A stretch of DNA of 64,000 nt from an uncultured Gemmatimonadales bacterium (GTDB lineage Bacteria; Gemmatimonadota; Gemmatimonadetes; Gemmatimonadales; GWC2-71-9). The translations under genes and the position numbers were made by a program. The notes beneath the pieces were generated by a model, which was given only the letters and a program-made list of their open reading frames with translations, did not search any database and was not told the DNA's origin. Positions within the stretch are counted from its first letter, which is position 1. Each line of letters starts with the position of its first letter. Below, one piece after another: positions 18,286 to 35,432 of the stretch. The DNA is taken from positions 2,521,338 through 2,585,337 of the forward strand of contig CAVUAK010000001.1 in NCBI GenBank assembly GCA_963739455.1, written 5' to 3'.

Positions 18286-18310
18286 TCTTCCCGCATCACC
18301 GGAGTGCACC

Positions 18311-19975: not shown

Positions 19976-20006
19976 GTCGATTCAGGAGCGCACAATATAC
20001 GGACGT

Positions 20007-20420
20007 CTAGTCTTCAATTATTGGAGCGCCGTTCTTCAAGGCCAGGTCGATTTGTTCTCTAGCCGCTTTGATCTCGTCAGGAGGATGTCCCTCCCAATCC
20101 TTTACTTCAGCCACCACCTTGAAACCCTTCTGTGCTCGAAAGGAGTTCGTCGGATTGCCGGGAAACTTCTTGTCGGTAAGGTTCGGATCGTTCTCAATCG
20201 TACCCATGGGCTCAACGACGTAGATCCTGCCGGGCCCATCGCCTACAGCCAGTTCCGCTCCCCAAATTGCCACATTCAAGTTCGACGACGCATAAACAAA
20301 CTTTGCCTTCCGTTCGCCGTAATTGGCATCATTTCCGGGGACGATAAGATCTCCGATGCCGAGATGGCATTTGGTGCCGTGAAAATAGCTTTGAATGAAA
20401 TTGGGATGTTGGTCTGTCAC
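20007..20420 (-). CDS. arr: NAD(+)-rifampin ADP-ribosyltransferase
   Basis: YFHGTK, AIWGAELAVGDGPGRIYVVEP, ENDPNLTDKKFPGNPTNSFR and WEGH motifs; GTG start at 20420. Confidence 0.9.
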   Translation of the reverse strand: MTDQHPNFIQSYFHGTKCHLGIGDLIVPGNDANYGERKAKFVYASSNLNVAIWGAELAVGDGPGRIYVVEPMGTIENDPNLTDKKFPGNPTNSFRAQKGFKVVAEVKDWEGHPPDEIKAAREQIDLALKNGAPIIED

Positions 20421-20429
20421 GTTGTCACC

Positions 20430-20515
20430 CTGAAGACAAAATTGGGCCAGCCCGGGCGCGCGAGGGTCCGGTGGGACCCCGATTCGCGCTTGATGCTCCA
20501 GCCGAGCCGCAACCG
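20430..20515 (-). pseudogene. hicA: Internal hicA fragment
   Basis: RLGWSIKRESGSHRTLARPGWPNFVF, near-identical to the intact hicA at about 23055-23135. Confidence 0.8.
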
Positions 20516-20721: not shown

Positions 20722-21513
20722 TCAGCGTTGTGCCGGTGGCGAAACCAGTAGTGTGTCCGGGTGCCGGAGATCAACGACGCCGTTGAATATCACTAGTGCT
20801 TCGGCAACGCCGCGAGGGTCACTGACCTGGCGCACATTGAGTGTATAGATCCCGGGCTGCAGGCTCGGCATCTGAGCCTCCCATTCGACACAGGCGGTGA
20901 TCATTACGACGATGTCCTGCTGCTGGGGAATGACATCCAACACGATCCCCGAGCCATCTCGATAGGCACGGGCATGGAGGTCCAGTGGCGCATTCGCGCT
21001 GCCCGTGAACCCCGTGACCCGAATTGACGTTGCCGTCGTCTCGACTAGGTACACGCCGCTACAAAGACCGGTGTGTGATTCGGGCATCGTGCGAAAGCGC
21101 AGCTTCAGTGCTGACGCATCGCGCTCTCCTGGTGCCCGACCAACCTCCTGCAGCACGAGCGGAGCTGACCGCAGCGTCACTGCGATAGTCTCGGTACGGC
21201 CTTCGCGCACGACGATCGTGTCGGTGCGGCGACTGTTCCCGATCAGCGCGACCGCGACGGCGTATGTGCCGGCCGGAAGTGAGTCCGCGCGGAATGCGCC
21301 CACACTGTTGGTCACAAGGGTCTGAAGGGGCAGTTCCGGGCCGGGCACAGCATAGATCTGAACTAGCGCAGTGGCCAGGGCCACTCCTGTGGAATCGCGG
21401 ACAATTCCTACAATGCCCCCAGGACCTGTGCCGGGGCCTGCACTTTGTGCCGCGGCAGCGTGGCCGACGGCAAGCGCGACGGCGACCGAAGCGGACATGA
21501 CAAAGGTGACCAT
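20722..21513 (-). CDS. Cassette-encoded exported protein with carboxypeptidase-regulatory-like (Cna B-type) domain
   Basis: Signal peptide; GIVGIVRDSTG...TNSVGAF...LPAGTY. Confidence 0.8.
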   Translation of the reverse strand: MVTFVMSASVAVALAVGHAAAAQSAGPGTGPGGIVGIVRDSTGVALATALVQIYAVPGPELPLQTLVTNSVGAFRADSLPAGTYAVAVALIGNSRRTDTIVVREGRTETIAVTLRSAPLVLQEVGRAPGERDASALKLRFRTMPESHTGLCSGVYLVETTATSIRVTGFTGSANAPLDLHARAYRDGSGIVLDVIPQQQDIVVMITACVEWEAQMPSLQPGIYTLNVRQVSDPRGVAEALVIFNGVVDLRHPDTLLVSPPAQR

Positions 21514-21532
21514 ACGACGAACCTCGCTTGCA

Positions 21533-21665
21533 GCATAACGCGTTGCACATGTGCTGCGGCCGCGGTCGCGGCGCGAGCGCGGCGGCTCAACAAGCTGCTG
21601 GCACGGGCCGCGCTCGTGCCGCACAAGCCGCCCGCGGCCGAGAGCTCACCATGTGCGTGTTATGC
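21533..21665 (-). repeat. attC site
   Basis: 133-bp copy. Confidence 0.93.
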
Positions 21666-21959
21666 CTCACGTCGTCGGATCCAGCGGCGCGGATGGCGCC
21701 GGGAATGCGCCACCGCCACGAGGCGGACCCGATCTGAGTCCACGTGGAAGTAGATGCCGAACGGGTAGCTCGGAAGCAGGGCGCGCCGGAGTGTGTCATG
21801 GACGCGGACAATGAACTCCGGTCGCTCGCGAATCGCCGTGAGCGTGACTTCAACCGTATCAAGAAAACGCGCCGCAGCTTGGGGAGAGCGTGCGGCGTAC
21901 CAGGCGTGTGCTTCGTCGATGTCCGCCTCGGCGATGGGGCGGATCACGAGGCGCCGCAC
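21660..21959 (-). CDS. RelE/ParE family toxin
   Basis: AEADIDEAHAWY, YPFGIYF and AVAHSRRHP motifs. Confidence 0.88.
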   Translation of the reverse strand: MRRLVIRPIAEADIDEAHAWYAARSPQAAARFLDTVEVTLTAIRERPEFIVRVHDTLRRALLPSYPFGIYFHVDSDRVRLVAVAHSRRHPRRWIRRREA

Positions 21960-22180
21960 TAGCGCCTGCGCTGCTCGATGCGCGCCCGGACGTCTTCCCA
22001 AGGTGACCCGGCATCCGGATCCCGCTCCATTTCGGCAAGTCGACGATCAAGCTCCGCGGCTAGTGCAGGCGAGATCGGAGCAGCCGCGCCTTCGGAAGCG
22101 AGGCTGTCCCAAAGCTCCTCGAGCAACGCGAGCCGCTCGGATACACTCAGGCGGGACAGGTCCACGGGCGAAGAGGCCAT
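21959..22180 (-). CDS. Addiction-module antitoxin (TIGR02574-like)
   Basis: LSVSERLALLEELWDSL...ELDRR...SPWEDV. Confidence 0.88.
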   Translation of the reverse strand: MASSPVDLSRLSVSERLALLEELWDSLASEGAAAPISPALAAELDRRLAEMERDPDAGSPWEDVRARIEQRRR

Positions 22181-22226
22181 GGCTGAATCCTAGGATCTCA
22201 AAGGTGAACGGGCAACTGTCCGTGAG

Positions 22227-22267
22227 GCATAACGCGTTGCCGACAGCTCACCATGTGCTTGTTATGC
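22227..22267 (-). repeat. Collapsed attC (41 bp), probably non-functional
   Basis: GCATAACGCGTTGC joined directly to CGACAGCTCACCATGTGCTTGTTATGC. Confidence 0.85.
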
Positions 22268-22561
22268 CTCACTCCGACGGATCCAGCGGCGTGGATGCCG
22301 ACGGCCGTGGACCACGCCGAGAATGCTGATGACCTTCGGAAAGATCCGGTAGTAGACGCCGTACGGAAAGTGCATCACGGCAGCCCGACGCAGCTCACCC
22401 CGGACGAGCGGCCACGCCTCAGGATTCTCCTCAATGCGGACCATGGTCGCGTCGAGCTCATCAAGAAAACGCGCGGCCACATCCGGTGACCGCGCTGCAT
22501 ACCACTCGAAGGCTTGTGCGAGCTCAGCGCTCGCCACCGACCGAACCGCCAGGCGACGCAC
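22262..22561 (-). CDS. RelE/ParE family toxin (paralog of 21660)
   Basis: AFEWY, FPYGVYY and HGRRHPRRWIRR motifs. Confidence 0.88.
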   Translation of the reverse strand: MRRLAVRSVASAELAQAFEWYAARSPDVAARFLDELDATMVRIEENPEAWPLVRGELRRAAVMHFPYGVYYRIFPKVISILGVVHGRRHPRRWIRRSEA

Positions 22562-22777
22562 CTACAGGCGGCGGCGCAACTCGTCCCGAACTTCAGCCCA
22601 AGAGCGGCCAGCGTCCGGGTCCTGCTCCGCTTCCGCCGAACGCCGGTCAAGCTCCGCCGCAACGTCGGGCGTCAGTTCGTGGGTCCGCGTCGGGTCCAAG
22701 CTATCCCAGAGCTCGCCAATAAGCTCCAGGCGCTGATCCGGCGTCAGATGCGAAAAGTCCACGAGTGGTGCCGACAT
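22562..22777 (-). CDS. Addiction-module antitoxin (TIGR02574-like)
   Basis: LTPDQRLELIGELWDSL...AELDRR...SWAEV. Confidence 0.88.
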   Translation of the reverse strand: MSAPLVDFSHLTPDQRLELIGELWDSLDPTRTHELTPDVAAELDRRSAEAEQDPDAGRSWAEVRDELRRRL

Positions 22778-22828
22778 GTTTGCAATCTGCTAAAGGAGCC
22801 CTGCGCAGGCAAGGAAGACCGTGGTGAG

Positions 22829-22961
22829 GCATAACGCGTTGCACATGTGCTTCGGCCGCGGTACGCGGCGCCAGCGACGCGACTGACCAGGCTCCTAGGA
22901 CAGGCGGCGCTGGCGCCGCATCAACGCCCGCGGCCGACAGCTCACCATGTGCGTGTTATAC
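22829..22961 (-). repeat. attC site (inner-stem variant B)
   Basis: 133-bp copy. Confidence 0.93.
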
Positions 22962-22971
22962 AGCACGGACG

Positions 22972-23185
22972 CTAGAGGTCGCTTGGGGTCAGGCCGGTAT
23001 GCATTGGCGATGCGCGCCAGCATGCGCGGGCCAATCTCATCAGTGTCGTGAAAGGCGAATACGAAATCGGGCCAGTCTGGGTGTGCGAGGGTCCGGTGGG
23101 ACCCTGATTCGCGCTTGATGCTCCAGCCGAGCCGCACCAACGCGGCGAAGACGCGGCGCGCCTTGGCGGCGCCCCACGTGCTCAT
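22972..23185 (-). CDS. hicA: HicA toxin (one extra base near the 3' end)
   Basis: GWSIKRESGSHRTL...HDTDEIGPRML; removing one T gives AKHTGLTPSDL-stop. Confidence 0.85.
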
Positions 23186-23388
23186 GCGGCCAGGAAGGAC
23201 ACCGTGAGGAGTTCGGGCACGGCTTCGCCGGCTTCCATGCGTTCAGCCAAGGCGTGCAGCGCCAGGGCCTGAACCTTGGCCACAGCATCCGTACGGGTCA
23301 CGCCGTAAGTCATAACCCCCGGCATCTCGGGCACTTCGGCGATCCAGCGACCGTCGGCTTCCTGGTCGATTTCGATATTGAACGTCAT
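23182..23388 (-). CDS. hicB: HicB antitoxin
   Basis: QEADGRWIAEVPEMPGVMTYG. Confidence 0.9.
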   Translation of the reverse strand: MTFNIEIDQEADGRWIAEVPEMPGVMTYGVTRTDAVAKVQALALHALAERMEAGEAVPELLTVSFLAA

Positions 23389-23446
23389 GGGGCCCTCTGG
23401 GAGAGTGGCAGACCCTAGGAATCTAGCCCCGCCACCCCGTCGTGCT

Positions 23447-23578
23447 GTATAACGCGTTGCACATGCGCTGCGGCCGCGGTGGCGGCGCGAGCGCGGCGGC
23501 TCAACAGGCTCTCAGCACAGGCCGCGCTCGTGCCGCACCAAGACCCGCGGCCGACAGCTCACCATGTGCTTGTTATGC
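23447..23578 (-). repeat. attC site
   Basis: 132-bp copy. Confidence 0.93.
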
Positions 23579-23593
23579 TGCAGGGCCGCGGGA

Positions 23594-23929
23594 CTAGCCC
23601 AGCAACTGTATAAGGCGTGCGCGAACGTCGTCGCGGAATAAGGCCTCGACTGCTACAATGCGGCCTCCGGCGACATCGACATTGAGCATGCCGGAGGCTA
23701 CTTCGTCCAACGCAAGGGTCTCGTGATCCGGGCCCCACGCACCATCCGATCGCGCTTTCGCGTAGAAAGTCGCGCAAAAGTCGTCCCCGCACCTGCAGCG
23801 ATCTACGATTCGAAGAGACGAGAGCTGATCCGCAAGCTCGGGGCGATTCTCTGCGCGAAGGAGCCTATCCAACTCGCCTGAGAGCTGAGGCAGTGCTTCC
23901 GAAAGCAGGAGCGGTGAGCTCGATTTCAT
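23594..23929 (-). CDS. Cassette-encoded hypothetical protein (RCRCGDDFCATFY motif)
   Basis: Fills the cassette. Confidence 0.8.
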   Translation of the reverse strand: MKSSSPLLLSEALPQLSGELDRLLRAENRPELADQLSSLRIVDRCRCGDDFCATFYAKARSDGAWGPDHETLALDEVASGMLNVDVAGGRIVAVEALFRDDVRARLIQLLG

Positions 23930-23945
23930 TGAGATCCTAGTTGCA

Positions 23946-24077
23946 GCATAACGCGTTGCCCATGTGCTGCGGCCGCGGTGGCGGCGCGAGCGCGGCGGCT
24001 CAATAGGCTTCTAGCACAGGCCGCGCTCGTGCCGCACCAGAATCCGCGGCCGACAGCTCACCATGTGCGTGTTATGC
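23946..24077 (-). repeat. attC site
   Basis: 132-bp copy. Confidence 0.93.
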
Positions 24078-24614
24078 AGCAACAGTTTCAGGTGTGTCGA
24101 GTAGCTCAACCTGACCCACATGCCTCCTTACGAGCGCTCGCAACGGGGCAAGATCGACATCCGGAACCATTCGCCGCGGTATGAAATACGCGCACTTTGC
24201 AGTATAGAAGAACAAGAAGAACTCTTCGGTCTCAACGACGCGCTCGATGGCCCGCCATTCGAACTTCGCTGACGTCCCATCATCGCGGCATTCTAAGCCT
24301 TGCGCAGTTACTTCGCGCGTGATCTGGCCACGTAACCGATGATTCTGCTTCATGGCCCGTTTGATCGACCAGCGCGTGATCCACGGAATGCCGAAGTACG
24401 TGAACAGCGGAAAGAAGAACCAAGGCCAGATGAGAACACGATCCCATCGGACATGCCCTTGCAGGAGGCCGCCGAGGAACAAGGAGAAGAGCGTCAAGCC
24501 AAGCGGAAACCCGAACGCAAGCAGGAGCGTGAGCTTATTGCCTCCGCAAACGCGCTGAACGGCCCGGTGTGCCCGGAGGTACTCAGCTTCGTCAAACGGC
24601 GCCTGAAATTGCAT
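24072..24614 (-). CDS. YcxB family membrane protein
   Basis: Two TM segments then FEWRAIERVVETEEFFLFF...AYFIPRR. Confidence 0.85.
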   Translation of the reverse strand: MQFQAPFDEAEYLRAHRAVQRVCGGNKLTLLLAFGFPLGLTLFSLFLGGLLQGHVRWDRVLIWPWFFFPLFTYFGIPWITRWSIKRAMKQNHRLRGQITREVTAQGLECRDDGTSAKFEWRAIERVVETEEFFLFFYTAKCAYFIPRRMVPDVDLAPLRALVRRHVGQVELLDTPETVAA

Positions 24615-24646
24615 TTACTCCGCTTTCGAGAATGTTTGGCATTGCT

Positions 24647-24778
24647 GCATAACGCGTTGCACATGTGCTGCGGCCGCGGTGGCGGCGCGAGCGCGGCGAC
24701 TGAACAGGCTCTTGGCACGGGCCGCGCTCGTGCCGCATCAACAACCCGCGGCCGACAGCCACCATGTGCGTGTTATGC
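24647..24778 (-). repeat. attC site
   Basis: 132-bp copy. Confidence 0.93.
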
Positions 24779-24824
24779 GTCAGGCCCGCACCAGCATAGA
24801 TTCCACTGGTCCTAAGGAGGCCAT

Positions 24825-25046
24825 ATGCAAATTCAGTTCACGGCAGTCTTCCGCAAAGTCCCGGAAGGGTATGTCGGCTTCGTTGAGGAGCTGCCCGGCG
24901 CCAATACGCAGGGAGCTACCCTGGATGAGGCACGCGTGAACCTGCAGGAAGCCGTCGAGCTGGTGCTCGAAGCGAACCGCGCCCTGGCCGAGCTGGAGCT
25001 TGGCACGGCGGATGTGATTCGCGAGCCGCTCCGCCTCACGGCGTGA
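24825..25046 (+). CDS. hicB: HicB antitoxin (inverted relative to the array)
   Basis: GYVGFVEELPGANTQGATLDEARVNLQEA; AAGGAGG RBS. Confidence 0.9.
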   Translation: MQIQFTAVFRKVPEGYVGFVEELPGANTQGATLDEARVNLQEAVELVLEANRALAELELGTADVIREPLRLTA

Positions 25047-25228
25047 AGCGCGTTGATCTCGTGCGCCACCTGCTGGCGCACGGCTGTGAACTTCTTCGAG
25101 AAGGTGGCAACCACTCGGTTTTCTTGAACCGGGCAGCGCGTAGAGTGACCACCGTACCCCGCCATCGCGAGATCAATGAATTGCTCGCGCGCAAGATCTG
25201 CAAGGATCTCGACGTACCCCCGTCCTGA
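25043..25228 (+). CDS. hicA: HicA toxin (inverted relative to the array)
   Basis: LLREGGNHSVF...VPRHREI...KICKDL. Confidence 0.9.
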   Translation: MKRVDLVRHLLAHGCELLREGGNHSVFLNRAARRVTTVPRHREINELLARKICKDLDVPPS

Positions 25229-25229
25229 C

Positions 25230-25361
25230 GCATAACGCGTTGCACATGTGCTGCGGCCGCGGTGCGCGGCGCCGGCGACGCGACTGAACGAGCTCCTAGC
25301 ACGGGTGGCGCCGGCGCCGCAGAATCACCCGCGGCCGAAAGCCACCATGTGCTTGTTAGGC
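25230..25361 (-). repeat. attC site (variant B)
   Basis: 132-bp copy. Confidence 0.93.
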
Positions 25362-25396
25362 CGCAACTGCACAAAGAGCTCGCAGGTCCGCAGGCG

Positions 25397-25957
25397 CTAT
25401 GGCTGATCTATTGGAGCCTGGACAAGTACCCAGTCCTGAGGACCGTCCTTCACTAGACGCCAGCCATCGAAGCCACCTGGCCGCAAGAGCATTGCTTGTT
25501 CTTCCATGAACATTGTGCGGAAGTTGCTCGCCCACGCAATGTCCCGAATGGCGCTTGAGCGGGAGGCAAGTGCTGCGGTGACGCCGATGCCAATAGCTAT
25601 GAGGAAGAACATTGCGACCGAGCCCACGCTAATGTCGCTGCCATCACGCCAGATCGTGGAGCCAACGACGTGCCAGCCAACAACTAGTACGGCGGCCCAA
25701 GCCGCAATGTTCTTGAGGCCGTACGTCCACATGAAATGCCAGAAGCGTGTTGGTTGGTAGCGCTGCATCTGCTCAGCCCGCCGCATGCGGCGCGCCTGCC
25801 AACGATAGGAGCGCACAGCGCGCCCGTCGTCACCGATGGACCCGCCGTCCTCGGCATGCTGCGCGAGGTCGTGGGCAAGTTCTGAGAAGCTTGGCGGGCC
25901 ATTGAGATAGACCCGACCAAAGAAGCCAAGCTGCTGTGCCGGAGCGCTGCGCATCAT
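25397..25957 (-). CDS. Cassette-encoded 2-TM hypothetical protein (start uncertain)
   Basis: Longest ORF in the cassette. Confidence 0.6.
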   Translation of the reverse strand: MMRSAPAQQLGFFGRVYLNGPPSFSELAHDLAQHAEDGGSIGDDGRAVRSYRWQARRMRRAEQMQRYQPTRFWHFMWTYGLKNIAAWAAVLVVGWHVVGSTIWRDGSDISVGSVAMFFLIAIGIGVTAALASRSSAIRDIAWASNFRTMFMEEQAMLLRPGGFDGWRLVKDGPQDWVLVQAPIDQP

Positions 25958-26039
25958 CTATGAAAGGCAATTCCCGTCATGGAAGACTGCAGCAGGGCTG
26001 CGCCTATCTCCGTCTTGTCTTCGCAAGCGGTTGCCTGCG

Positions 26040-26171
26040 GCCTAACGCGTTGCACATGTGCTGCCGCCGCGGTCGCGGCGCGAGCGCGGCGGCTCAACAG
26101 GCTCCTAGCACGGGCCGCGCTCGTGCCGCATCAATACCCGCGGCCGACAGCTCACCATGTGCTTGTTAGGC
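26040..26171 (-). repeat. attC site
   Basis: 132-bp copy. Confidence 0.93.
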
Positions 26172-26396
26172 TGCGCCGGACCGGACGGGGCGCCAGTGCA
26201 TGGCCAGCTTCCGCCCCTGCGCGGCGCAATCCCGCAGGTACAGGTTAATGAGCGTCTGGTACGGGATCTCGGTGTCCGTGGCCAAGGCCTTGAAGTAGGC
26301 AATGGTGGCCTCATCGAGCCGGATCGTCACCGACCGCTTGAGGCGCTTGGCGTAGACGTTCCGCCCGCCCTTCGAGAAATCGTATTCCTTCCTCAT
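26166..26396 (-). CDS. BrnA-type (RHH) antitoxin
   Basis: MRKEYDFSKG...VTIRLDE...YFK...IPYQTLINLYLRDC. Confidence 0.88.
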   Translation of the reverse strand: MRKEYDFSKGGRNVYAKRLKRSVTIRLDEATIAYFKALATDTEIPYQTLINLYLRDCAAQGRKLAMHWRPVRSGAA

Positions 26397-26701
26397 GATT
26401 CCCACCGTGCGCCGTATTGCGTGAGCTCTGAACGGGTTGCTTTACGTGCCGAGATGAGCCGAATCGTGTCGTCGCGCTCCCGGTAGACATGGACCACGAC
26501 CAGGAGCCGGGTCAGTGCACTCAGGCCGAGGAGGATGAACCGCTCCTCGCGAGCCGAGTGATCTGGATCCTCGATCAGGATCGCCGCCTCGTTGAACCGC
26601 TGCGCCATCCACTCGCCGTACTGCGCGGAGTCGCGTGCGATGTACTCGCGAATGGCTTGAACGTCGTCGAGCGCCTGAGGGGTCCACTCAACCGGGGTCA
26701 T
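26393..26701 (-). CDS. Chimeric toxin: RelE/ParE N-terminus fused to BrnT C-terminus
   Basis: WTPQALDDVQAIREYIARDS followed by DPDHSAREERFILLG...LLVVVH...IRLISARKAT. Confidence 0.8.
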   Translation of the reverse strand: MTPVEWTPQALDDVQAIREYIARDSAQYGEWMAQRFNEAAILIEDPDHSAREERFILLGLSALTRLLVVVHVYRERDDTIRLISARKATRSELTQYGARWES

Positions 26702-26881
26702 CCCAGGAGCCGGCGCTTCGCTTCCTCATGGGGAATCAGTCTGGCCGGCGTCGGCCTGGGCCAAGCCGCGCTCGACTTTGGCAAGGAATAGGAGGCGCTC
26801 GATGGCATCCTCGACGGTCGCGTCCGGCGGCAGCTGCCGCACGGCATCGAGGATCTTGTCAGGGGTGGTCGAAGCTGCCAT
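26698..26881 (-). CDS. Antitoxin of the RelE/ParE module (one extra base)
   Basis: VRQLPPDATVEDAIERLLFLAKVERGLAQADAG; removing one A gives LIPHEEAKRRLLG-stop, ATGA-coupled to the toxin. Confidence 0.8.
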
Positions 26882-26959
26882 GAACCCTCTCTTGGGGCAG
26901 GTTCCAGAATCTATGAGACGCCGCGTGGATCACAAATGCCGGCCGCCGCAGATAGAGCG

Positions 26960-26990
26960 GGGCCTCGTCAGCTGCATGCGCTAGTTAAGC
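26960..26990 (-). repeat. R''/L'' half of a different attC type
   Basis: Minus strand GCTTAAC-TAGCG-CATGCAGCTGACGAGG; matching L'/R' half absent. Confidence 0.75.
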
Positions 26991-27539
26991 CGCAGGGCGG
27001 TGGAACCCAGGCGCGCGCGAGCCTGCAAGGCGTTTTAGCACCCAGGCCGCGGTCAGCCAGAGGACGACCGCTGCTCCAGCACTGACGAGGGTGATGCGCG
27101 CGTCCAAGTCGATGATGCCCAAGCCGACGAGCCCCAGTCCCATGAGGGCAGCGGCAGTGGCGTAGTATGCCGGTGCCAGTAGCCCACGCGCGAGTGGCAC
27201 GAAGTGGGCTCCGACGATGAGGGCAACCGCCGACACTGTAAGGTCTCGGTGTCCGGTGCTCGGGAGCAGCACGCCAGCAACGAAGAAGAGTGCGAGGCCC
27301 TCCAACGCGCTCGCCCACGCGACTAGCTTGTCTCGTCGCGCGTGTTCGTTTGCGTCGACGGTAGCCTCCGGCGTCGCTTGCTGGCGGTGCACCAGGCGCC
27401 AGGCGACACCAGCGAGCGCGACTGCGGCAAGAAGCGGCAGGGGGTACACCAGCGCTGGGCTGTGGTCAGCGATCTGCAGGCCGACGATCCACCAGATGGT
27501 GGCGAAGAATCCTAGGATCAACGCGCCAGTGATGCTCAC
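26985..27539 (-). CDS. Cassette-encoded multi-TM membrane protein
   Basis: Six hydrophobic segments, LIVGAHFVPLA motif; stop in R''. Confidence 0.8.
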   Translation of the reverse strand: MSITGALILGFFATIWWIVGLQIADHSPALVYPLPLLAAVALAGVAWRLVHRQQATPEATVDANEHARRDKLVAWASALEGLALFFVAGVLLPSTGHRDLTVSAVALIVGAHFVPLARGLLAPAYYATAAALMGLGLVGLGIIDLDARITLVSAGAAVVLWLTAAWVLKRLAGSRAPGFHRPAA

Positions 27540-27575
27540 GCAATCTCCGACCGTGCAAAGTGAAGCATGGTTGCG

Positions 27576-27708
27576 GCCTAACGCGTTGCACATGTGCTGC
27601 GGCCGCGGTGCGCGGCGCCAGTGACGCGACTGAAAGAGCACCTAGCACAGGCGGCGCTGGCGCCGCACCAAGGTCCGCGGCCGACAGCTCACCATGTGCT
27701 TGTTATGT
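27576..27708 (-). repeat. attC site (variant B)
   Basis: 133-bp copy. Confidence 0.93.
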
Positions 27709-27712
27709 GGCG

Positions 27713-27982
27713 CTAAAGTCGCCTCAACAGCTGATCGTACTCCGCATGCGAGCCGATCCAAAACCACACCAGGTCCTCGCCCTCACGCACGGCGAGCGCC
27801 CGATACCCGAGGCCGACGCGCGCCGAGTAGATCGGACGCTGCGCGTGGACCTGCTTGAACCGCAAGGCGGGATGACTGGGATCGCGGGCGAATGTTTGAT
27901 AGGCGAGGCGCGCCTGAGCCCGGACGTGAATAGGCAACGCCGCCAGCGCCTCGCGGAACCGACGGGTGGTGCGCGAGGTCAA
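27713..27982 (-). CDS. RelE/ParE-superfamily toxin
   Basis: DPSHPALRFKQV...YSARVGLGYRAL...WFWIGSHAEYD. Confidence 0.85.
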   Translation of the reverse strand: MTSRTTRRFREALAALPIHVRAQARLAYQTFARDPSHPALRFKQVHAQRPIYSARVGLGYRALAVREGEDLVWFWIGSHAEYDQLLRRL

Positions 27983-28197
27983 AGCCGGTCGGGATCGAGC
28001 GGCTGGGTCTGTCCGCCACGCAATTCTCCGAGGGCTTCATCCGCGAGCTTTGCCAAGGCATCCGGACGACGACGGAAACTGTCATCCCAGAGCGGCTCGG
28101 TGGCGACCTCATCGAGGATCGCGGCCGCGAGCGCATCCTGGGCCTCGGCAGGGAGTTTGGCCGCTTCGGCGAATGCCTTCTCGAGCAGTTTGGTCAT
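27979..28197 (-). CDS. Cognate antitoxin
   Basis: MTKLLEKAFAEAAKLPAEAQDALA...WDDSF...LADEAL; overlaps toxin start. Confidence 0.82.
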   Translation of the reverse strand: MTKLLEKAFAEAAKLPAEAQDALAAAILDEVATEPLWDDSFRRRPDALAKLADEALGELRGGQTQPLDPDRL

Positions 28198-28255
28198 GGT
28201 AGCCTCCTAGCCCAAATCTAGCCCAGCCCCCACCCGCGACGGAAACCCGATTGCC

Positions 28256-28387
28256 ACATAACGCGTTGCACATGTGCTGCGGCCGCGGTGCGCGGCGCCA
28301 GCGACGCGACTCAACAGGCTGTCAGCACTGGCGGCGCTGGCGCCGCAGAACCGCCCGCGGCCGCCAGCCACCATGTGCGTGTTATAC
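28256..28387 (-). repeat. attC site (variant B)
   Basis: 132-bp copy. Confidence 0.93.
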
Positions 28388-28393
28388 CGCACA

Positions 28394-28855
28394 CTAGTCG
28401 CAGCCAGCTTGCACCGGAGTGCTACCCAGCACCGTTAGGCTGCCTGGAGCACCGAGCGCCACACGCCACCGGTCGATGCCCACAGGATCACAATGCGTGT
28501 TGACCGCCTCGATGGTGAGGATCCACCGCTTGTCTTCCCGCACGAGAACCGGGTTGACGAGATGGACGCCTCCACCGGTGGTCTCCGTGAGCGGCGCGGT
28601 TGCTAGAAGGCGCGACGGTGTATCGGACTCCGTTGGCTCCGCCACCCATTCCACACGGGCCTCCGAAATAAGGTGCTCAAAGCCACCGGTTTCGATGATG
28701 ACTCGAAACGAGCCATGCGCTGAATCGTCAACCTGCCAGTAGCCGCCCGAGATGACTGTCTCGACATCTAGCGGCACCTGGCCGTCCGTTTGAGCGGCAG
28801 CGGTCGATGCGACACACAGCACAGAGGCGACGCTCAACGGAATCCTGCCACGCAA
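28394..28855 (-). CDS. Cassette-encoded exported hypothetical protein
   Basis: GGAGG RBS, signal peptide ending AAA-Q. Confidence 0.8.
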   Translation of the reverse strand: MRGRIPLSVASVLCVASTAAAQTDGQVPLDVETVISGGYWQVDDSAHGSFRVIIETGGFEHLISEARVEWVAEPTESDTPSRLLATAPLTETTGGGVHLVNPVLVREDKRWILTIEAVNTHCDPVGIDRWRVALGAPGSLTVLGSTPVQAGCD

Positions 28856-28874
28856 ATGGACCTCCGTCTGTGCG

Positions 28875-29005
28875 GTATAACGCGTTGCACATGTGCTGCG
28901 GCCGCGGTGGCGGCGCGAGCGCGGCGACTGAACAGGCTTCTAGCACAGGCCGCGCTCGTGCCGCAAGAGTACCCGCGGCCGCCAGCCACCATGTGCTTGT
29001 TATGC
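28875..29005 (-). repeat. attC site
   Basis: 131-bp copy. Confidence 0.93.
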
Positions 29006-29022
29006 CGCCCCCATGACCGATC

Positions 29023-29511
29023 CTAGTATATGGCGCCATCGAGGGACGCGCTCTGCGTCCAGCCCTCCGGGCCACGCACAAACAAATCGAGGGAACTCTG
29101 ACCGCACTTCGGGCCACAGAGCACCGAGACTTCAATCAGGGCGGAGTCCTGGGCGCCATTGAAGGCGGCGCGAGACAAGTAGATGCGATTCTGCCCTGCC
29201 GCCTTCGGTAGTGCAGCCTCGGTGAGACGCACCTGCTTGCCGGAAACAGCGAATTCAACGGGGAAACGGGCTCGCTGCTGATTGGAAGCCCAGAAGCTGC
29301 CGAGCAGCTCGGCGCTCACGCCATTGTTGCTATGATCGCGACACCATGTCACCGAGTCCGCGCCGAGGGCGGGGAGACGAGTGAGAGCCGCGACTTCAAG
29401 TGACTCCGCGGGCTGCGCGCTGAGCACGTCGCGGGCAAGCGTGAGCTCGGCCGTATCGGGCGCCGCAGTGCAGGCGGTAACGAACCAGACTAGGACCCAT
29501 GGTCGCTTCAT
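29023..29511 (-). CDS. Cassette-encoded putative lipoprotein
   Basis: VTAC lipobox; LSRAAFN and CGPKCG motifs. Confidence 0.8.
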   Translation of the reverse strand: MKRPWVLVWFVTACTAAPDTAELTLARDVLSAQPAESLEVAALTRLPALGADSVTWCRDHSNNGVSAELLGSFWASNQQRARFPVEFAVSGKQVRLTEAALPKAAGQNRIYLSRAAFNGAQDSALIEVSVLCGPKCGQSSLDLFVRGPEGWTQSASLDGAIY

Positions 29512-29527
29512 TCGATCTCACTTGGCG

Positions 29528-29657
29528 GCATAACGCGTTGCACATGTGTTGCGGCCGCGGTGGCGGCGCCAGCGACGCGGCTGAAAGAGCTGGTAGCACG
29601 GGCGGCGCTGGCGCCGCAAAACCACCCGCGGCCGACAACACCATGTGCGTGTTATGT
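29528..29657 (-). repeat. attC site (variant B)
   Basis: 130-bp copy. Confidence 0.93.
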
Positions 29658-29983
29658 TCGCGGCGCGATCGACCGTGAGATAGCTACGGAACCTGACCGC
29701 TCATGCTGCTTGGCTCGCATTTCTGATAGTGACGCTGGAGATGCCAGGAACGGCACCAACGCGCCGCTACCTACGTCCCGATGCTTGAGCTCTTGCGAGG
29801 AACCAGGCAACCAATCATGCCAGCTACCAATGGTGCCAGTGCTCGAGCTCGTTGATGCCTGCGTTGTCGTGATGGTTGATGGTACTGTGCCGGACGGGAC
29901 TCCCGCCACTAGAGCCAGACACATAGGACGTTTGTCCTAGGGGTCAGACGTTCAACAGCTGTTCGCCTTCACGGCCGGCCGCG
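29658..29983 (-). other. ORF-poor cassette carrying a palindrome and a -10-like hexamer
   Basis: Only a low-complexity 90-codon frame without RBS; TAGGAC-GTTT-GTCCTA at 29924-29939. Confidence 0.55.
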
Positions 29984-30113
29984 ACATAACGCGTTGCACA
30001 TGTGCTGCGGCCGCGGTGGCGGCGCGAGCGCGGCGACTCAACAGGCTCTTAGCACAGGCCGCGCTCGTGCCGCACGAGTACCCGCGGCCGGCAGCACCAT
30101 GTGCGTGTTATAC
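29984..30113 (-). repeat. attC site
   Basis: 130-bp copy. Confidence 0.93.
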
Positions 30114-30659
30114 GGCACGCCCATCGATCTCCGAGGGCAGAGCCGCGCTGGTACCATCAACGGCGGACAGTTCCCGATCGATACGCGCGACCAGTCGCTG
30201 ACGATCGTATTGACTCAACCCGCTCTGCTCCAGCTCCGCGCGCAGTCGACGCAGGTACGGTACCCGGCGCCGTTTGTCCTGCACGGTGATGCTGCGGAGT
30301 TCAGGGGCGACTTCCTCGCCTGGCTTTCCCCACAGGCCGAAGCGATCAAAGAGCATCCGATCAATAGTCGCTGCACTTGTAGTCCTGATGCCCGGACTAA
30401 CGTTACACTTGCGGCAAGCGGGGAGCGGCGCCACGTACTCCCAGAAGTTCTGAGTAAACCGCGTCCCGCAGAGCCGGCAGCGCATCCAGCTGGCGTACGA
30501 GAGAAGCCATGAACCGCCGAATATCACTCCCCAGCGTGCCACCCCAGCGAGGAATGCACCTTCCACACCGGGTGCGAGCTGTCGCACTCCTAGGCCACTC
30601 GTCACGCCCACGACGAGTGTGAGGCCATAGGTGAGGGCAGAGCGCGCACGGATCGTCAA
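30108..30659 (-). CDS. Cassette-encoded 2-TM protein with CxxC...CxxC Zn-ribbon
   Basis: CRLC and CRKC motifs; stop in R''. Confidence 0.7.
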   Translation of the reverse strand: MTIRARSALTYGLTLVVGVTSGLGVRQLAPGVEGAFLAGVARWGVIFGGSWLLSYASWMRCRLCGTRFTQNFWEYVAPLPACRKCNVSPGIRTTSAATIDRMLFDRFGLWGKPGEEVAPELRSITVQDKRRRVPYLRRLRAELEQSGLSQYDRQRLVARIDRELSAVDGTSAALPSEIDGRAV

Positions 30660-30693
30660 AGGACGCGTAACATCACTCCGGTCTCGTTGTGCC

Positions 30694-30824
30694 GAATAAC
30701 GCGTTGCACATGTGCTGCGGTCGCGGTGGCGGCGCGAGCGCGGCGGCTCAACAGGCTTCTAGCACAGGCCGCGCTCGTGCCGCATCAGTACCCGCGGCCG
30801 ACAGCCACCATGTGCGTGTTATAC
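30694..30824 (-). repeat. attC site
   Basis: 131-bp copy. Confidence 0.93.
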
Positions 30825-31424
30825 CGCAGCGGCCATCGACGCGAGATGCTGCACTTCTGCGCCTTCGATAAGCTCTGGTCGCAGCGCGGATACCAGACGC
30901 CGCGGGACGTAGGTTGCCGCCCAGAAGGCGGGCAGAGCGACAGGCAAGACACGCAGCGCTTCTGGCCAGCGCCAAGCGCTCGTCACTTCCGACACCCCTG
31001 CGAATGATGCCACTACTGCCAGGGTACCGGGCAAAGCGAGCGCCAATGCCAAGCCCGCCAGCCATGTGCGGCTGGGGCGAACCGGCGCGAAGCGTGGCGC
31101 GTACTTAACGTAGAGGCAGTAGGCCAGGATGTAGCCTGGAGCTAGTAGCAGGATGACAAAGCCCGCGAAGTATGCCGAGGTCAGCAGGCATGCGCCGAGA
31201 AATCTCAGCTCGAGCAATCCCTGGCCCTGGAGTAGCACTCCGACAGTGCACGCCAGGACGGTCCACACCAGAAGGCCGGTCAGCGCGGAAAGCGTAGACC
31301 ACACCAGTGCCGCTCGGATTCGGGGCTCGTGCACCAGGGCCGCCGCGCCCGGTGCCAGACTTCTAAGCAGCAGCGCGCTCGCTCCGAGTGTCGACGTTAC
31401 ATAGACCCAGAACCAAGCGCCCAT
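30819..31424 (-). CDS. Cassette-encoded multi-TM membrane protein
   Basis: AAGGAG RBS; about five hydrophobic segments. Confidence 0.8.
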   Translation of the reverse strand: MGAWFWVYVTSTLGASALLLRSLAPGAAALVHEPRIRAALVWSTLSALTGLLVWTVLACTVGVLLQGQGLLELRFLGACLLTSAYFAGFVILLLAPGYILAYCLYVKYAPRFAPVRPSRTWLAGLALALALPGTLAVVASFAGVSEVTSAWRWPEALRVLPVALPAFWAATYVPRRLVSALRPELIEGAEVQHLASMAAAV

Positions 31425-31441
31425 CGATTCTCCTTACTGCG

Positions 31442-31572
31442 GTATAACGCGTTGCACATGTGCTGCGGCCGCGGTCGCGGCGCGAGCGCGGCGACTGAAC
31501 AGGCTTTTAGCACAGGCCGTGCTCGTGCCGCAAGAGTACCCGCGGCTGACAGCCACCATGTGCTTGTTAGGC
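31442..31572 (-). repeat. attC site
   Basis: 131-bp copy. Confidence 0.93.
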
Positions 31573-31578
31573 AGCGCC

Positions 31579-31968
31579 CTAGTGGGGCTTTGGTGCCCCA
31601 TCCATACTCACAGTGAACTCGATACGCTGCTGGACCAGGACGCGCACTGGTGCTCCATCATAGCTGCTGCGAGAGAAGACAGCCTTCCGCACCAGGTCGC
31701 TGGCCGCCCGCGCGTAGCCGGTGTCAGTGGCGGAGATAATTCGCACGGAGCTCGGTTCGACCGCACCTGACGTATCAATGATATAGGTCAGTACCACCTC
31801 AGCCGGCCCACCGCGCCGATAGTTCATTTGAGGCTTGTTCAAGCGAGTCGGTTGCACCGCTAGTGCTGCGAGCGGAACAACCCGAACGCTGTCTGACTGC
31901 GCGCGAAGTGGCATGGCCGCTCCGGCGAGAACCAGAAGCCCGCTCAGGAGACATGGAGTTCTGATCAC
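31579..31968 (-). CDS. Exported TonB C-terminal domain protein
   Basis: VVLTYIIDTSGAVEPSSVRII...DGAPVRVLVQQRIEF. Confidence 0.82.
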   Translation of the reverse strand: MIRTPCLLSGLLVLAGAAMPLRAQSDSVRVVPLAALAVQPTRLNKPQMNYRRGGPAEVVLTYIIDTSGAVEPSSVRIISATDTGYARAASDLVRKAVFSRSSYDGAPVRVLVQQRIEFTVSMDGAPKPH

Positions 31969-32004
31969 AGTCCTCCCTTAGACAAGTCGCGCCCCTTGCG
32001 CGCT

Positions 32005-32135
32005 GCCTAACGCGTTGCACATGTGCTGCGGCCGCGGTGGCGGCGCGAGCGCGGCGACTCAACAGGCTTCTAGCACAGGCCGCGCTCGTGCCGCACCAAG
32101 GTCCGCGGCCGGCAGCCACCATGTGCTTGTTATGC
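32005..32135 (-). repeat. attC site
   Basis: 131-bp copy. Confidence 0.93.
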
Positions 32136-32167
32136 GGCAGAGAGCCTGGAGCTCTGAGCACGACAAC

Positions 32168-32449
32168 TTAGCGAAACCGATACCCAGAGAGGCGTGCTAG
32201 GACGGCCGGGTCCGATCCGCCGTACCGCACGGCGTCGCAGCACGCAACGGCCACCGCCGCGATCGCATGCGATAGCTCCTCCTCCGTGGCCGGCTGCCGG
32301 TGGAAATAGCAGGTGCCCGCGTGATCGTCGAACGCCATCAGTTCCGGGGCCTCAGCCTCAGGAGCTAGGCAAGCAATGCACTGATCCTTGAGGACGAAGA
32401 ACGGGCCTGGGGCGTTGAGTGGCGTGCGCTCGGCTCGATCTTGCTCCAT
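32168..32449 (-). CDS. Single-cluster ferredoxin-like protein
   Basis: NAPGPFFV..DQCIACLAP..EAP...RQP...ACCDAVR; GGAGG RBS. Confidence 0.8.
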   Translation of the reverse strand: MEQDRAERTPLNAPGPFFVLKDQCIACLAPEAEAPELMAFDDHAGTCYFHRQPATEEELSHAIAAVAVACCDAVRYGGSDPAVLARLSGYRFR

Positions 32450-32466
32450 GTCTCCTCCGTGTTGCC

Positions 32467-32597
32467 GCATAACGCGTGGCACATGTGCTGCGGCCGCGGT
32501 GGCGGCGCGAGCGCGGCGGCTGAAAGAGCGGTCAGCACAGGCCGCGCTCGTGCCGCACCTATACCCGCGGCCGCCAGCCACCATGTGCGTGTTATGC
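32467..32597 (-). repeat. attC site
   Basis: 131-bp copy. Confidence 0.93.
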
Positions 32598-32645
32598 AGC
32601 AAGTGGACGGCGCTCAGTCGTTTTTGCAACATACAGAGGATGCCG

Positions 32646-33092
32646 TTACGGATCTCTGAGTGCCCTCTCTACGTACGCGACGATCTCGGCCACCGGAATG
32701 GTGAACACCCCCCCTCGCGCCCTCACCCACTCTTGATAGCCGGCCTCGTAGTCCGGTAGACGAACGGAAACGGTCGCTAGAGTTGTCAGGCTGGCAAGGA
32801 GGGCTGTTCTGGAGATCGGGGCATGAGGCAACTCCGTACTCTCCCCGTCCGGGCGCCGAGGATTGTTGATGTGAAGACCATGAACCGCAATATGAACGAC
32901 CGCGCCAAGGGAGGAGTCAGCCTCTATCCGCAGTATGACGAGCGTTGAAGAGTCTTCGCCAGGCCGCGTGTGATAGTGCCATTCCTGCCCGGCTGCGAGT
33001 GGGGGCGTTAGCGGCTTAATCCCAGCTGACTGAGAGAGCGCCTCCCGAGGGAGCGTCGAGGCCATCGCCAACCACAGCACTAGGCTCCGCAA
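32646..33092 (-). CDS. Cassette-encoded exported hypothetical protein
   Basis: GGAGG RBS with TTG start; GQEWHYHTRPGE, HAPIS and GGVFTIPV motifs. Confidence 0.8.
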   Translation of the reverse strand: MRSLVLWLAMASTLPREALSQSAGIKPLTPPLAAGQEWHYHTRPGEDSSTLVILRIEADSSLGAVVHIAVHGLHINNPRRPDGESTELPHAPISRTALLASLTTLATVSVRLPDYEAGYQEWVRARGGVFTIPVAEIVAYVERALRDP

Positions 33093-33112
33093 TGAGCAGA
33101 CCTCCGGATGCT

Positions 33113-33243
33113 GCATAACGCGTTGCACATGTGCTGCGGCCGCGGTCGCGGCGCGAGCGCGGCGACTCAACAGGCTCTCAGCACTGGCCGCGCTCGTGCC
33201 GCACCAATACCCGCGGCTGACAGCCACCATGTGCTTGTTAGGC
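33113..33243 (-). repeat. attC site
   Basis: 131-bp copy. Confidence 0.93.
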
Positions 33244-33492
33244 CGCCGTCCCAGCCAAGCGGTTGCGGTGGTACCGCCAGGCCATGACCAGTACTGATAG
33301 CGTCAGCACGATGCTGACGGCGTCGACCAGTCGACTATCGCCGAGTCGACTCACCTGTGCGGTGGCAACTGCGGCGGCCAAAAGCAGAAGCACCCGCGCG
33401 CGGTCCTTCAGGCCGCGCCGATAATAGATGCCGGCGACCACCGCAAACGTGATCGGAACGATTGCGAAGGCGGCGATACCGATTAGCTGCAT
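33238..33492 (-). CDS. First cassette: small 3-TM membrane protein (84 aa), copy 2
   Basis: Identical to 2533-2787. Confidence 0.85.
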   Translation of the reverse strand: MQLIGIAAFAIVPITFAVVAGIYYRRGLKDRARVLLLLAAAVATAQVSRLGDSRLVDAVSIVLTLSVLVMAWRYHRNRLAGTAA

Positions 33493-33514
33493 GGCGCCTC
33501 CAAGGTCGTATGCG

Positions 33515-33580
33515 GCCTAACTATCACATGTACTGCGTTTGTTTGTGCCGCACTCAACAGCAGAAGCGTCTTCGTTACAT
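33515..33580 (-). other. Putative attI site
   Basis: Minus strand CAGTACATGTGATA-GTTAGGC: core plus the attC L-box motif, no attC hairpin, AT-richer spacer up to the intI stop. Confidence 0.7.
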
Positions 33581-33693
33581 ATCGCTCCCGAACAACGCGA
33601 AGCATCTCCCCACCCACATTGATGTTACGCACCGGTACTACGATCTGCCAGAACGGCGCTGCATCGGCAGTGCTGTAGTATGGGTCGATTGAC

Positions 33694-34537
33694 CTATCTC
33701 CGATCCAGCGGACTACGCACCCCCAACCCACCCCGATTGAGCACGTGAGTGTAGATCATCGTGGTCGTCACACTCCGATGTCCAAGCAGTTCCTGCACCG
33801 TCCTGATGTCCTAACCATCCTCCAGGAGGTGCGTCGCGAATGAGTGCCGGAAGGTATGACACGTCACCCGGTGCGGCAGGCCCGACACTTGCCCTGCCTG
33901 GGTCACTGCGCGCTGGATGACGGTCGGGTGCAGGTACATGCGCCACTGCCTGGCGTGAGCTCTTCCCCCAGGCACGTATCGGCGCCCCGCCGGAAGCACC
34001 CACCACCAGGGCCACGCCGTCGCCGCACCCTTTCCCTTCCGCTCCATCGCCTCCGGCAACGGGACCGCGACCCCACGCGCAACATCGGCCAGGTGCTGCT
34101 CCTTCACGACCGCGAGATGCTCCCGCAGCGCCGGCTGCATCACCCTCGGCAGCATCGTCACCCGGTCCTTCGCTCCCTTCCCCCTGCGGCGTGAGCTGGC
34201 CCCTCTCGAAGTCAACGTCCTTCACGCGGAGAGTAAGGCATTCCATGAGCCGAAGGCCACTGCCATAGAGCAGCTCCGCCGCCAGCCGGCTGGCGCCGTT
34301 CATGGCGTCGAGCACGACGCCCACCTCATCGCGCGTGAGGACGACGGGCAACCGCTCCGGTGCCTTGGCCCTGACAAGACCATCGAGCCACCCGACGTCG
34401 CGGCGGAGTACCGCGCGGTAGAGGAAGAGGATCCCGCTCAGCGCCTGGGTCTGGGTGGACTCGCTGACCCGACCACGTTCAGCGAGGTCAGTCAAGAATG
34501 CAGTGATCTCCTGGGGGCCAAGCTCTCCGTCATCCAA
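33694..34537 (-). pseudogene. intI: Integron integrase, 5'-truncated, frameshifted and with an internal stop
   Basis: STQTQALSGILFLY, LPVVLTRDEV, LLYGSGLRLMEC, GKGAKDR, IntI insertion (VPLPEAMERK...WPWWWVLPA), [26 protein letters not shown]...TTMIYTHV. Confidence 0.92.
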
Positions 34538-34557
34538 TCGCCGCAGGGCCGAACGAC

Positions 34558-35022
34558 TTATTGCGACCGGCCCCGCAACAACCGCGTCAACGCACGATCC
34601 AGCGCCCCCGCAAATGCCTGCTTGTCCCCCGCACCGAACGGCGCCGGACCACCCGTCACCATTCCCGCGATCCGCGCCTGCTCCATGAAGTCCCGCACCG
34701 ACAACCGCTCACCGATCGTCTCACTCGTGTGCTCCTCCCCCCGCGGGTCCAGCACCGTCACTCCCTTCGGCACCAGCAGCGCCGCAAGCGGCACATCCTG
34801 CGTCACCACCAGGTCGCCCGGCACCGCTTCCGCCACGATATGCTGGTCCGCTACGTCCGCCCCGCCATCGACCCACACCGCCGTCACCAGCGGATTGTTC
34901 GCCGGCGGCCGCAGCTGCTGGTTCGCCACCAGTACCGTCGGTACCCCAAGTCGCTTTGCCGCCCGGAACACGATCTCCTTCACGTCCCGCGGCGTCGCGT
35001 CTGCATCGATCCAGATTTTCAG
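34558..35022 (-). CDS. yaiI: YaiI/YqxD (DUF188) family protein
   Basis: [29 protein letters not shown] and ERLSVRDFM motifs; apparent CTG start. Confidence 0.88.
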
Positions 35023-35432
35023 GATGTCTCCTCGAGGACGTTACCGGGTCTTTGGCGCCCCTGCACAAACTCCTGCTGGCCAATCGTCTCATAGTAGTAG
35101 GACTCCGCATCCGAGCCTCGGCGAATCACCGCCACCGTATACGCCGTGCCCGGTACCAGCGGTTGCGCTGCGCTCCCGGTTGCACCCGGCGGCAGCTCGC
35201 CGTACCGCACGCCGGAAGACACTGAACCCTCGGTCCACCAGGTCACAGTTTCGCTGCCAGTGGGATATACCTCCAGCCGATATGCAATGCAGTTGGGCGA
35301 CCAGGTGAACCGCGGAGCCACGTCGGGGCTCGCCACCACCTCCACCCGCTCGCCCGGGGCGCAGGAAGCCGTCGGCTCGCTCGCCGACGAACACGCAGTA
35401 GCCGCGAGCAGGAACAGGGCATTCACTCGCAT
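35019..35432 (-). CDS. Putative lipoprotein
   Basis: GGAGG RBS; ATAC lipobox. Confidence 0.75.

Follow-up and report, generated by a model that had tools for sequence, protein, structure and literature searches.

What kind of integron lies in the chromosome of an uncultured Gemmatimonadales bacterium in which the integrase gene points the same way as the cassettes, and what could drive and control the transcription of those cassettes? The question is raised by a 64,000-nt stretch of contig CAVUAK010000001.1 (the window; positions are counted along it unless a contig is named), from a genome designated G000, with its congeners referred to as G202, G215, G240, G325, G328, G329, G330 and G331. 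A first-pass annotation had read positions 20722-34537 as a sedentary integron anchored beside yaiI, with an inverted integrase gene (intI) and recombination sites (attC) of a family of its own. That this region is an integron is now practically certain. The account favoured as a whole, and with good confidence, is that of an inverted chromosomal integron with a mobile locus and a frozen array, accompanied by further insertion platforms served in trans and by an 18-bp palindrome through which a PAS-LuxR protein would control the cassettes. The inverted layout, and integrons in this phylum, are already known; what is new is the palindrome as putative operator, the candidate regulator and the landing platforms that lack an integrase. 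The first-pass annotation overlooked the truncated 5' end of intI, two more attI platforms, the duplication of the first cassette and the palindrome that resembles an operator.

The repeats were surveyed with a profile built from the window copies and searched against the genome contigs, which places 18 attC in 21533-33243, every one on the minus strand, 17 of them 130-133 nt long and one reduced to 41 nt. The 17 full sites of the main array are found at 33113-33243, 32467-32597, 32005-32135, 31442-31572, 30694-30824, 29984-30113, 29528-29657, 28875-29005, 28256-28387, 27576-27708, 26040-26171, 25230-25361, 24647-24778, 23946-24077, 23447-23578, 22829-22961 and 21533-21665. The reduced site (22227-22267, minus strand) has lost its hairpin and L' box and folds no better than shuffled sequences. 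Beyond the main array there are four attC at 66-2538 (three full-length and one of 72 nt); another lies immediately outside the window at its start, and on the plus strand, 115 kb off, there are two more. The earlier count of 20 full-length copies holds for the whole window (17 plus 3 in the second cluster 19 kb away) and not for 20722-34537, which has 17 full and one deleted. The high similarity ascribed to these 130-133-nt repeats is borne out by a mean pairwise identity of 88% (range 77-100%, 21 full copies).

Within the array the cores read RYYYAAC and GTTRRRY, and the R''/R' cores, L boxes, extrahelical bases and bottom-strand hairpin of an attC are all present. The bottom strands of the two copies that were folded give z scores of -5.3 and -6.1 with the R box paired, the box being unpaired in the top strand, and the consensus structure of 44 pairs has compensatory change in 5 of them (19 copies). 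Atypical traits are an 8-nt spacer on one arm and a C as the first extrahelical base; the L'-R' spacer is 8 nt in 17 of 17 main-array sites and in 122 of the 171 sites of the family, the usual length being five to six nt in the available text of PMC5027507. When the nine bases after GTT are taken as cassette ends (n=23), the two ends of the same cassette match at 8.0 of 9 positions and ends from different cassettes at 5.6 (0 of 20000 permutations), as expected of units that circularise. Folds, compensatory pairs and end matching are thus all above chance for attC sites, and the cassettes behave as mobile units, with complementary ends, an identical duplicate, and both differing and common cassettes among congeners. 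Recombination of the folded bottom strand of attC by IntI is the established mechanism and the sites here have the features needed for it, it would be in this way that IntI inserts circular cassettes at the attI site (33521).

The family of repeats is confined to part of the genus: 5 of 11 congeners have it at E 1e-6, and in G240 there is a version at 74%. The exact attC pattern, looked for in 185,579 species genomes, occurs in five stretches, all labelled Gemmatimonadota or Gemmatimonadales. These named records bear out a Gemmatimonadota host, of the order Gemmatimonadales, and a chromosomal array limited to part of one genus agrees with the proposal of a homogeneous attC family belonging to this lineage.

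The integrase gene (33694-34528, minus strand) is a pseudogene that covers positions 39-314 of a 315-position profile and retains the catalytic R, K, HxxR, H and Y as well as the IntI-specific insertion. It matches TIGR02249 (integron integrase) in two frames, at positions 39-151 and 153-314 with 135.9 and 183.4 bits, and TIGR02249 is the best family for every one of its three pieces. In a tree that uses the repaired protein, its breaks read as X, the sequence clusters with the intact IntIs of G202 and G215 (support 100/99), the Xer proteins of the genome standing apart; profile scores and tree agree on an IntI-type protein and rule out XerC/D. Genus-level clades in this tree are supported and the deeper structure is mixed and weak. 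rpoB was located in just 5 of the 12 genus genomes. An IntI from another family (locus L084, G097:C4) groups with IntI1 and one cyanobacterial IntI, its contig ends at the 5' end of intI, and that integron may be canonical.

It is apparent that intI and its cassettes share one orientation, for in 17 of 19 cassette segments the longest ORF is a minus-strand one. The array was said to start about 170 bp past the 3' end of intI, and the attI crossover at 33521 is indeed 173 nt from the intI stop. Misassembly or inversion between 33521 and 33694 is argued against by G202 and G215, which have an identical intI-spacer-attI order with a homologous spacer. A home-made attC detector was run on 60 related intI loci, picked for long contigs; 37 have at least two co-oriented attC 3' of intI, 4 have one and 19 have none (many at a contig break), with 0 canonical, and as a control the detector recovered the canonical upstream attC in two loci, one of class 1 and one cyanobacterial. 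Among 122 near-full-length intI matches a contig starts within 500 nt of the 3' end in 21 and of the 5' end in 0. On these counts the norm for this order is the inverted layout, and its description as a rarity was overstated, integrons being already catalogued in the phylum.

Integrases are also frequent here. Of 301 genomes sampled from the phylum, 142 match TIGR02249 (including the unpublished G157) and 124 do so above its cut-off; in the family of the window 80 of 125 match. The share of phylum genomes with IntI exceeds the 20% quoted for Gammaproteobacteria, a figure that refers to complete integrons in complete genomes.

The attI site (33515-33544, minus strand) consists of a congener-conserved motif at 33544-33533, an L-like box at 33533-33527 and a GTTRRRY core at 33521-33515, with the crossover after 33521. 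By sequence conservation it adjoins intI, with the first cassette beginning at G/TT. As intI lies upstream on the same strand as the cassettes, the cassette promoter (Pc) is probably located in the 173-nt spacer between intI and attI. A candidate is found at 33622-33651 (minus strand), where a -35-like hexamer (33651-33646) and a -10-like hexamer (33627-33622) are separated by an 18-nt spacer and both are held in position in G202 and G215.

The same spacer carries, at 33680-33697 and overlapping the intI stop codon, an 18-bp palindrome with the consensus TRGGWCRATYGWCCYA, which is the top-scoring of 28 sites in the genome and a candidate operator. Ten column-shuffled matrices give 0-4 sites compared with these 28. 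In all, 10 platform heads that could be located in G000, G202, G215, G240 and G329 have the palindrome: G000 has it in the spacers of all three platforms, G202, G215 and G240 in the intI spacer, and G240 and G329 at two integrase-less or partial platforms each; it is in 0 of 57 intI spacers from other genera. Matches to the exact pattern number 12-13 per strand in G000; it is found in 8 of 11 congeners, and outside the genus 3 of 80 genomes have one site each. A further copy (29923-29940) inside cassette 7 is identical in the homologous cassette of G215, the cassettes being 71% identical overall. On 130 dereplicated flanks, hexamers of the -10-like form TANNNT stand 22-28 nt from the site in 25 of 63, a peak that is reached by 7 of 2000 rotations. 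An activator placed beside the -35 region would have this spacing, as at LuxR-type promoters.

One of the palindrome sites directly precedes a LuxR-type gene (G000 C3, about 426330-426970), the product of which is modelled with a PAS-like domain as well as a helix-turn-helix and has EL222 and VqmA as best structural matches (pLDDT 78). An orthologue is found in exactly the 8 pattern-positive congeners, pattern and regulator thus agree in 11 of 11 genus genomes; it was not found in the 3 pattern-negative congeners (89, 99 and 83% complete), and a search of 147 genomes from other genera of the family did not find it either. One genome without the regulator, G325, has an intact intI and a spacer without the palindrome. 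At a fixed distance ahead of the regulator gene, the palindrome is seen in 7 of 9 copies from the genus and, among metagenomic copies, in 5 of the 5 that match from the N-terminus; it was not seen before 9 distant homologues and one close match that is partial (16 of 27 metagenomic loci were scanned). The regulator resembles VqmA and EL222 in domain layout, with identity of only 12-22%, and the palindrome is similar in style to their sites with a different sequence, VqmA binding 18 bp of DNA that contain a GG-N-CC palindrome (PMC8284805) and EL222 the 12-bp RGNCYWWRGNCY (PMC10521638). This PAS-LuxR one-component regulator most likely binds the palindrome in all three spacers and so would control cassette transcription, and the odds that the palindrome is an operator through which this genus-specific protein acts on the cassettes are judged, from sequence patterns, to be about even.

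Several points weigh against this operator role. The strict sigma-70 scan gives no match for the candidate Pc, and the palindrome of the main platform lies 52 nt from the -10-like hexamer, outside the 22-28-nt range. The palindrome is missing at one located head (G328:C10) and at one uncertain head (G331:C13), and was not seen in the stretches G328:C12, G329:C6 and G331:C12. Training of the weight matrix used G000 sites, two platform sites among them. The site before the regulator is degenerate in G202 and weak in G331. Furthermore, the IntI of G325 branches outside the palindrome-bearing subclade; palindrome and regulator may have been gained once in one subclade, in which case any protein specific to that subclade would fit their agreement.

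The rival that survives best is that the palindrome is bound by some other genus-specific protein, or architecturally by IntI or a nucleoid protein, with the PAS-LuxR protein having no effect on cassette transcription. Besides a single evolutionary gain as the source of the co-occurrence, it can draw on the sites that precede genes for a sigma-70 factor, an ECF sigma, a WYL protein and a restriction-type helicase, and on a palindrome-attI distance that varies from about 60 to 160 nt. However, the fixed distance before the LuxR-type gene speaks for that protein, and some of the alternatives fare poorly. IntI as binder is hard to reconcile with 25 of 28 sites lying off array heads and a GTTA core within 130 nt only at the two integrase-less platform sites; the WYL protein is discordant, being present in 2 of 3 pattern-negative genomes; and a LexA (SOS) box is ruled out, as neither lexA nor the start of recA has a site (best scores -5 and -11). 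Another binder is therefore considered possible and somewhat doubtful. The palindrome was also considered as the end of a small mobile element, which was rejected as the flanks have no common sequence beyond one 15-nt match.

Two of the other sites are recorded in their own right. The most conserved, kept in six congeners, is at G000 C1:1460625 (L127), between an alternative sigma-70 gene and a divergent gene which we take to be dehydroquinate-synthase-like; with a site beside a sigma-70 gene, the regulon may act through a sigma factor. A copy at 52774-52791, kept in G202, G215 and G330, is beside a tRNA gene and a short ORF that presumably ends in a PEP-CTERM-like tail.

Returning to the integron itself, its own integrase is probably out of action. 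The assembly as it stands encodes no functional integrase, for intI carries three lesions: the first ~38 codons are absent, there is a frameshift near 34189, and a base substitution creates an in-frame stop at 33811-33813. The missing 5' part (>100 nt) is found nowhere else in the assembly, and no second IntI was found in it (84% complete). With the 5' end lost, the array is probably frozen and would be decaying, leaving attC deletions and ex-cassettes without attC. Inactivation is seen again in G328, where a broken intI adjoins an array; at locus L164 (G328:C12) a block of unrelated genes breaks into intI two thirds of the way along, and the array there mixes 131-nt attC with shorter types.

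That the integron is instead active, with an intact gene in the real chromosome and lesions that stem from a chimeric join or from errors of assembly, has some points in its favour. The assembly is indel-rich, with frame changes in 7 of 31 other conserved genes (a gene at 53453-54706, minus strand, presumably isocitrate-dehydrogenase-like, is split over several frames, a sign of such errors), and the intI frameshift may for this reason be an assembly error, which counts against a frozen array, as does the lack of any compared contig that spans the yaiI-intI junction. An intact intI is present in G202, G215, G240 and G325 and on a metagenomic contig 95% alike, a cassette is duplicated at 100% identity, and no other IntI is present in the 84%-complete assembly. 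Yet there are three separate lesions, and the truncation and the stop, one a loss absent from the genome and the other a substitution, are less easily explained by assembly error than the frameshift. The broken intI of G328, and the frequent inactivation of intI in chromosomal integrons according to the available text of 10.1101/2025.06.18.660453, point the same way, and an active integron is thought unlikely. No sequencing run containing this strain was found (best share 0.09), and none of RNA; the four runs examined contain relatives only.

The frozen main array is not the only one. A second platform without integrase (2810-2915, minus strand) has a perfect palindrome (2898-2915), a -10-like hexamer (2873-2868) and an attI-like site with its crossover after 2816. 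The array that it heads (66-2816, minus strand) contains attC at 2408-2538, 1681-1811 and 929-1059 and the shortened 72-nt copy at 66-138, and extends past the window start. The cassette at its head is the same, at 100% identity, as cassette 1 of the main array (33113-33521, minus strand, an 84-aa membrane-type ORF at 33238-33492 with the attC at 33113-33243), attC included. This identity at a second attI points to recent integrase activity in trans, and with a third array head at C1:2404543 the simplest reading is that one integrase would have served all three platforms until recently, supplying those attI that have no intI of their own.

Alternatively, the integrase-less arrays arose by off-target insertion at chance attG sites, which are not true attI. 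Such an origin has been put forward for integrase-less clusters, insertion needing GWT alone in the available text of 10.1101/2022.09.11.507474, and neither integrase-less array has an intI remnant beside it. But the genome matches an attI-like pattern, derived from the three heads, at 4 places and 3 of these are the heads (a partly circular count), the palindrome lies 60-80 nt away at both, and in G240 an integrase-less attI copy is nearly identical to the main attI of that genome, so that chance insertion appears quite improbable. At locus L162 (G329:C4) two near-identical units of palindrome, -10-like hexamer and attI stand 2 kb apart, each followed by different cassettes and with no intI within 10 kb.

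Decay, for its part, is visible in shortened attC of 72, 41 and 19 nt, in the one attC missing before BrnT/BrnA, and in genes that are cassettes in congeners and have no attC in this genome. One such ex-cassette (8930-9470, minus strand) is 82% identical to an attC-bearing cassette of G329 and has a degenerate core and no attC. The 17 kb between the arrays (2950-20000), with at least one decayed cassette, hold mostly minus-strand accessory genes, among them GH127, a methyltransferase, a hydrolase, a split Ser/Thr kinase and a bile-acid symporter.

The identifiable cassettes include toxin-antitoxin systems, which may partly hold the array. The BrnT/BrnA pair (26166-26701, minus strand) has lost the attC that would separate it from a preceding DUF7010-like gene and is a separate cassette in G215. 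A cassette at 22895-23288 (minus strand) has a HicA toxin and an upstream ORF labelled HicB-like by position, with no Pfam match, and a ParE toxin with a small upstream ORF (21660-22180, minus strand) has a homologue in G240. A two-gene cassette at 22262-22777 (minus strand) resembles the adjoining ParE cassette, their ends being 83% alike. The last cassette-like unit (20722-21539, minus strand) encodes a carboxypeptidase regulatory-like domain and has a GTT core at its start and no attC of its own. Directly past it, without attC, is a homologue of arr (rifampin ADP-ribosyltransferase; 20007-20419, minus strand) at 171.5 bits, above the NCBIfam cut-off, and before this an 80-nt piece (20432-20511) is 90% identical to part of the HicB/HicA cassette (23057-23136). 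None of 26 cassette proteins matches the anti-phage defence models of PADLOC, and an Rfam scan gives no match within the array.

The weakest reading, a sedentary superintegron that is fixed next to yaiI and serves to mark the lineage, is very improbable: it has on its side a chromosomal array of more than 10 homogeneous attC with toxin-antitoxin cassettes among its cargo and a locus common to G202 and G215, and is opposed by yaiI adjoining none of the 60 other intI loci, by congeners using at least two other loci and by the genes that follow yaiI in G202 and G215, which map ~40 kb further on in G000. yaiI (DUF188; 34558-34983, minus strand) lies outside the integron and abuts a truncated intI in this genome only. 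The ORFs of 34540-48000 (yaiI, murI and beyond) have no match at any of the 60 loci, the upstream neighbours of which are common only to small groups. In G215 yaiI is 1.5 Mb from intI; in G202 and G215 intI adjoins genes with orthologues at G000 C1:917-927 kb, and in G240 it is at a third place. Judged by gene order, the integron here is apparently part of a ~40-kb variable island after yaiI. A single inversion joining yaiI to the G215 intI locus was rejected, the post-yaiI genes of G215 being off the 927-kb locus of G000 and the missing 5' part of intI being absent there. What remains of the sedentary description is that the array is chromosomal and has more than 10 homogeneous attC (threshold from PMC9024848); no conserved locus is found across the lineage. 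Anchoring is contradicted for the genus and could apply only to strains of this species, and the platform would be inherited with the lineage in the genus yet not tied to one locus. Further along, at the contig end, is a complete rRNA operon (59052-63958, plus strand).

Among known systems the closest in orientation is the inverted type of Treponema denticola, in which intI is likewise transcribed toward attI together with the cassettes, the integron is chromosomal and the attC are typical of the genus; it belongs to a different phylum, and the likeness is one of orientation, the IntI tree holding no sequence from it. Co-oriented integrases form a known, paraphyletic group, and the available portions of Cury 2016 (PMC4889954) and Wu 2013 (PMC3607928), which describe it, contain no operator or promoter for the inverted layout. 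Gemmatimonadota are listed among integron-bearing phyla in the available text of PMC8618304, and Tables S1 and S3 of Neron 2022 (PMC9024848) include a Gemmatirosa integron of 79 attC and one of 3 attC in Gemmatimonas aurantiaca. The Gemmatirosa integron is of the same order and its locus (L078) was co-oriented in the present scan, but Gemmatirosa and Gemmatimonas are of another family, with shorter attC, a 5-7-nt spacer as the rule and no palindrome. No attC model for the phylum appears in the available text of Ghaly 2021 (PMC8352920), and the literature searches found no paper on the architecture of Gemmatimonadota integrons.

Vibrio, with its VCR repeats, and Xanthomonas provide the nearest parallels for long homogeneous attC, toxin-antitoxin cassettes, distant integrase-less clusters and frequent inactivation of intI, although both have a divergent intI and one anchor locus (ilvD in Xanthomonas). 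For an inactivated intI with distant clusters and one anchor kept, Xanthomonas is a precedent in what is available of 10.1101/2025.06.18.660453. The Pc of V. cholerae is under CRP, and the available part of the review (PMC8876359) makes no mention of LuxR; in Vibrio the regulator of Pc is thus the global CRP, whereas here a genus-restricted regulator is the candidate. No paper was found that links an integron cassette promoter and attI to LuxR, or that describes a LuxR binding motif and regulon of a Gemmatimonad, subscription papers lying outside the search.

The integron itself adds little, as its layout and phylum are on record and it is an ordinary member of the inverted-integrase group, probably inactivated and not tied to yaiI. 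Arrays with an 8-nt spacer may be an under-counted reservoir of soil cassettes. Clusters of attC sites lacking an integron-integrase (CALINs) are usually read as debris or off-target insertion; here several begin at a complete attI with the same operator-like palindrome, one of them with a main-array cassette. It is tentatively suggested, at somewhat below an even chance, that one subclade of Gemmatimonadales has a private regulon in which a small-molecule-sensing PAS-LuxR protein would bind the palindrome between intI and attI and switch cassettes, with ~100-bp landing pads of operator, promoter and attI scattered over the chromosome and filled in trans by one integrase, an arrangement that the inverted layout would permit by making Pc independent of the integrase promoter. 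The position and control of Pc in inverted integrons are not described in the literature searched, and this genus offers concrete candidates for the promoter, the operator and the regulator.

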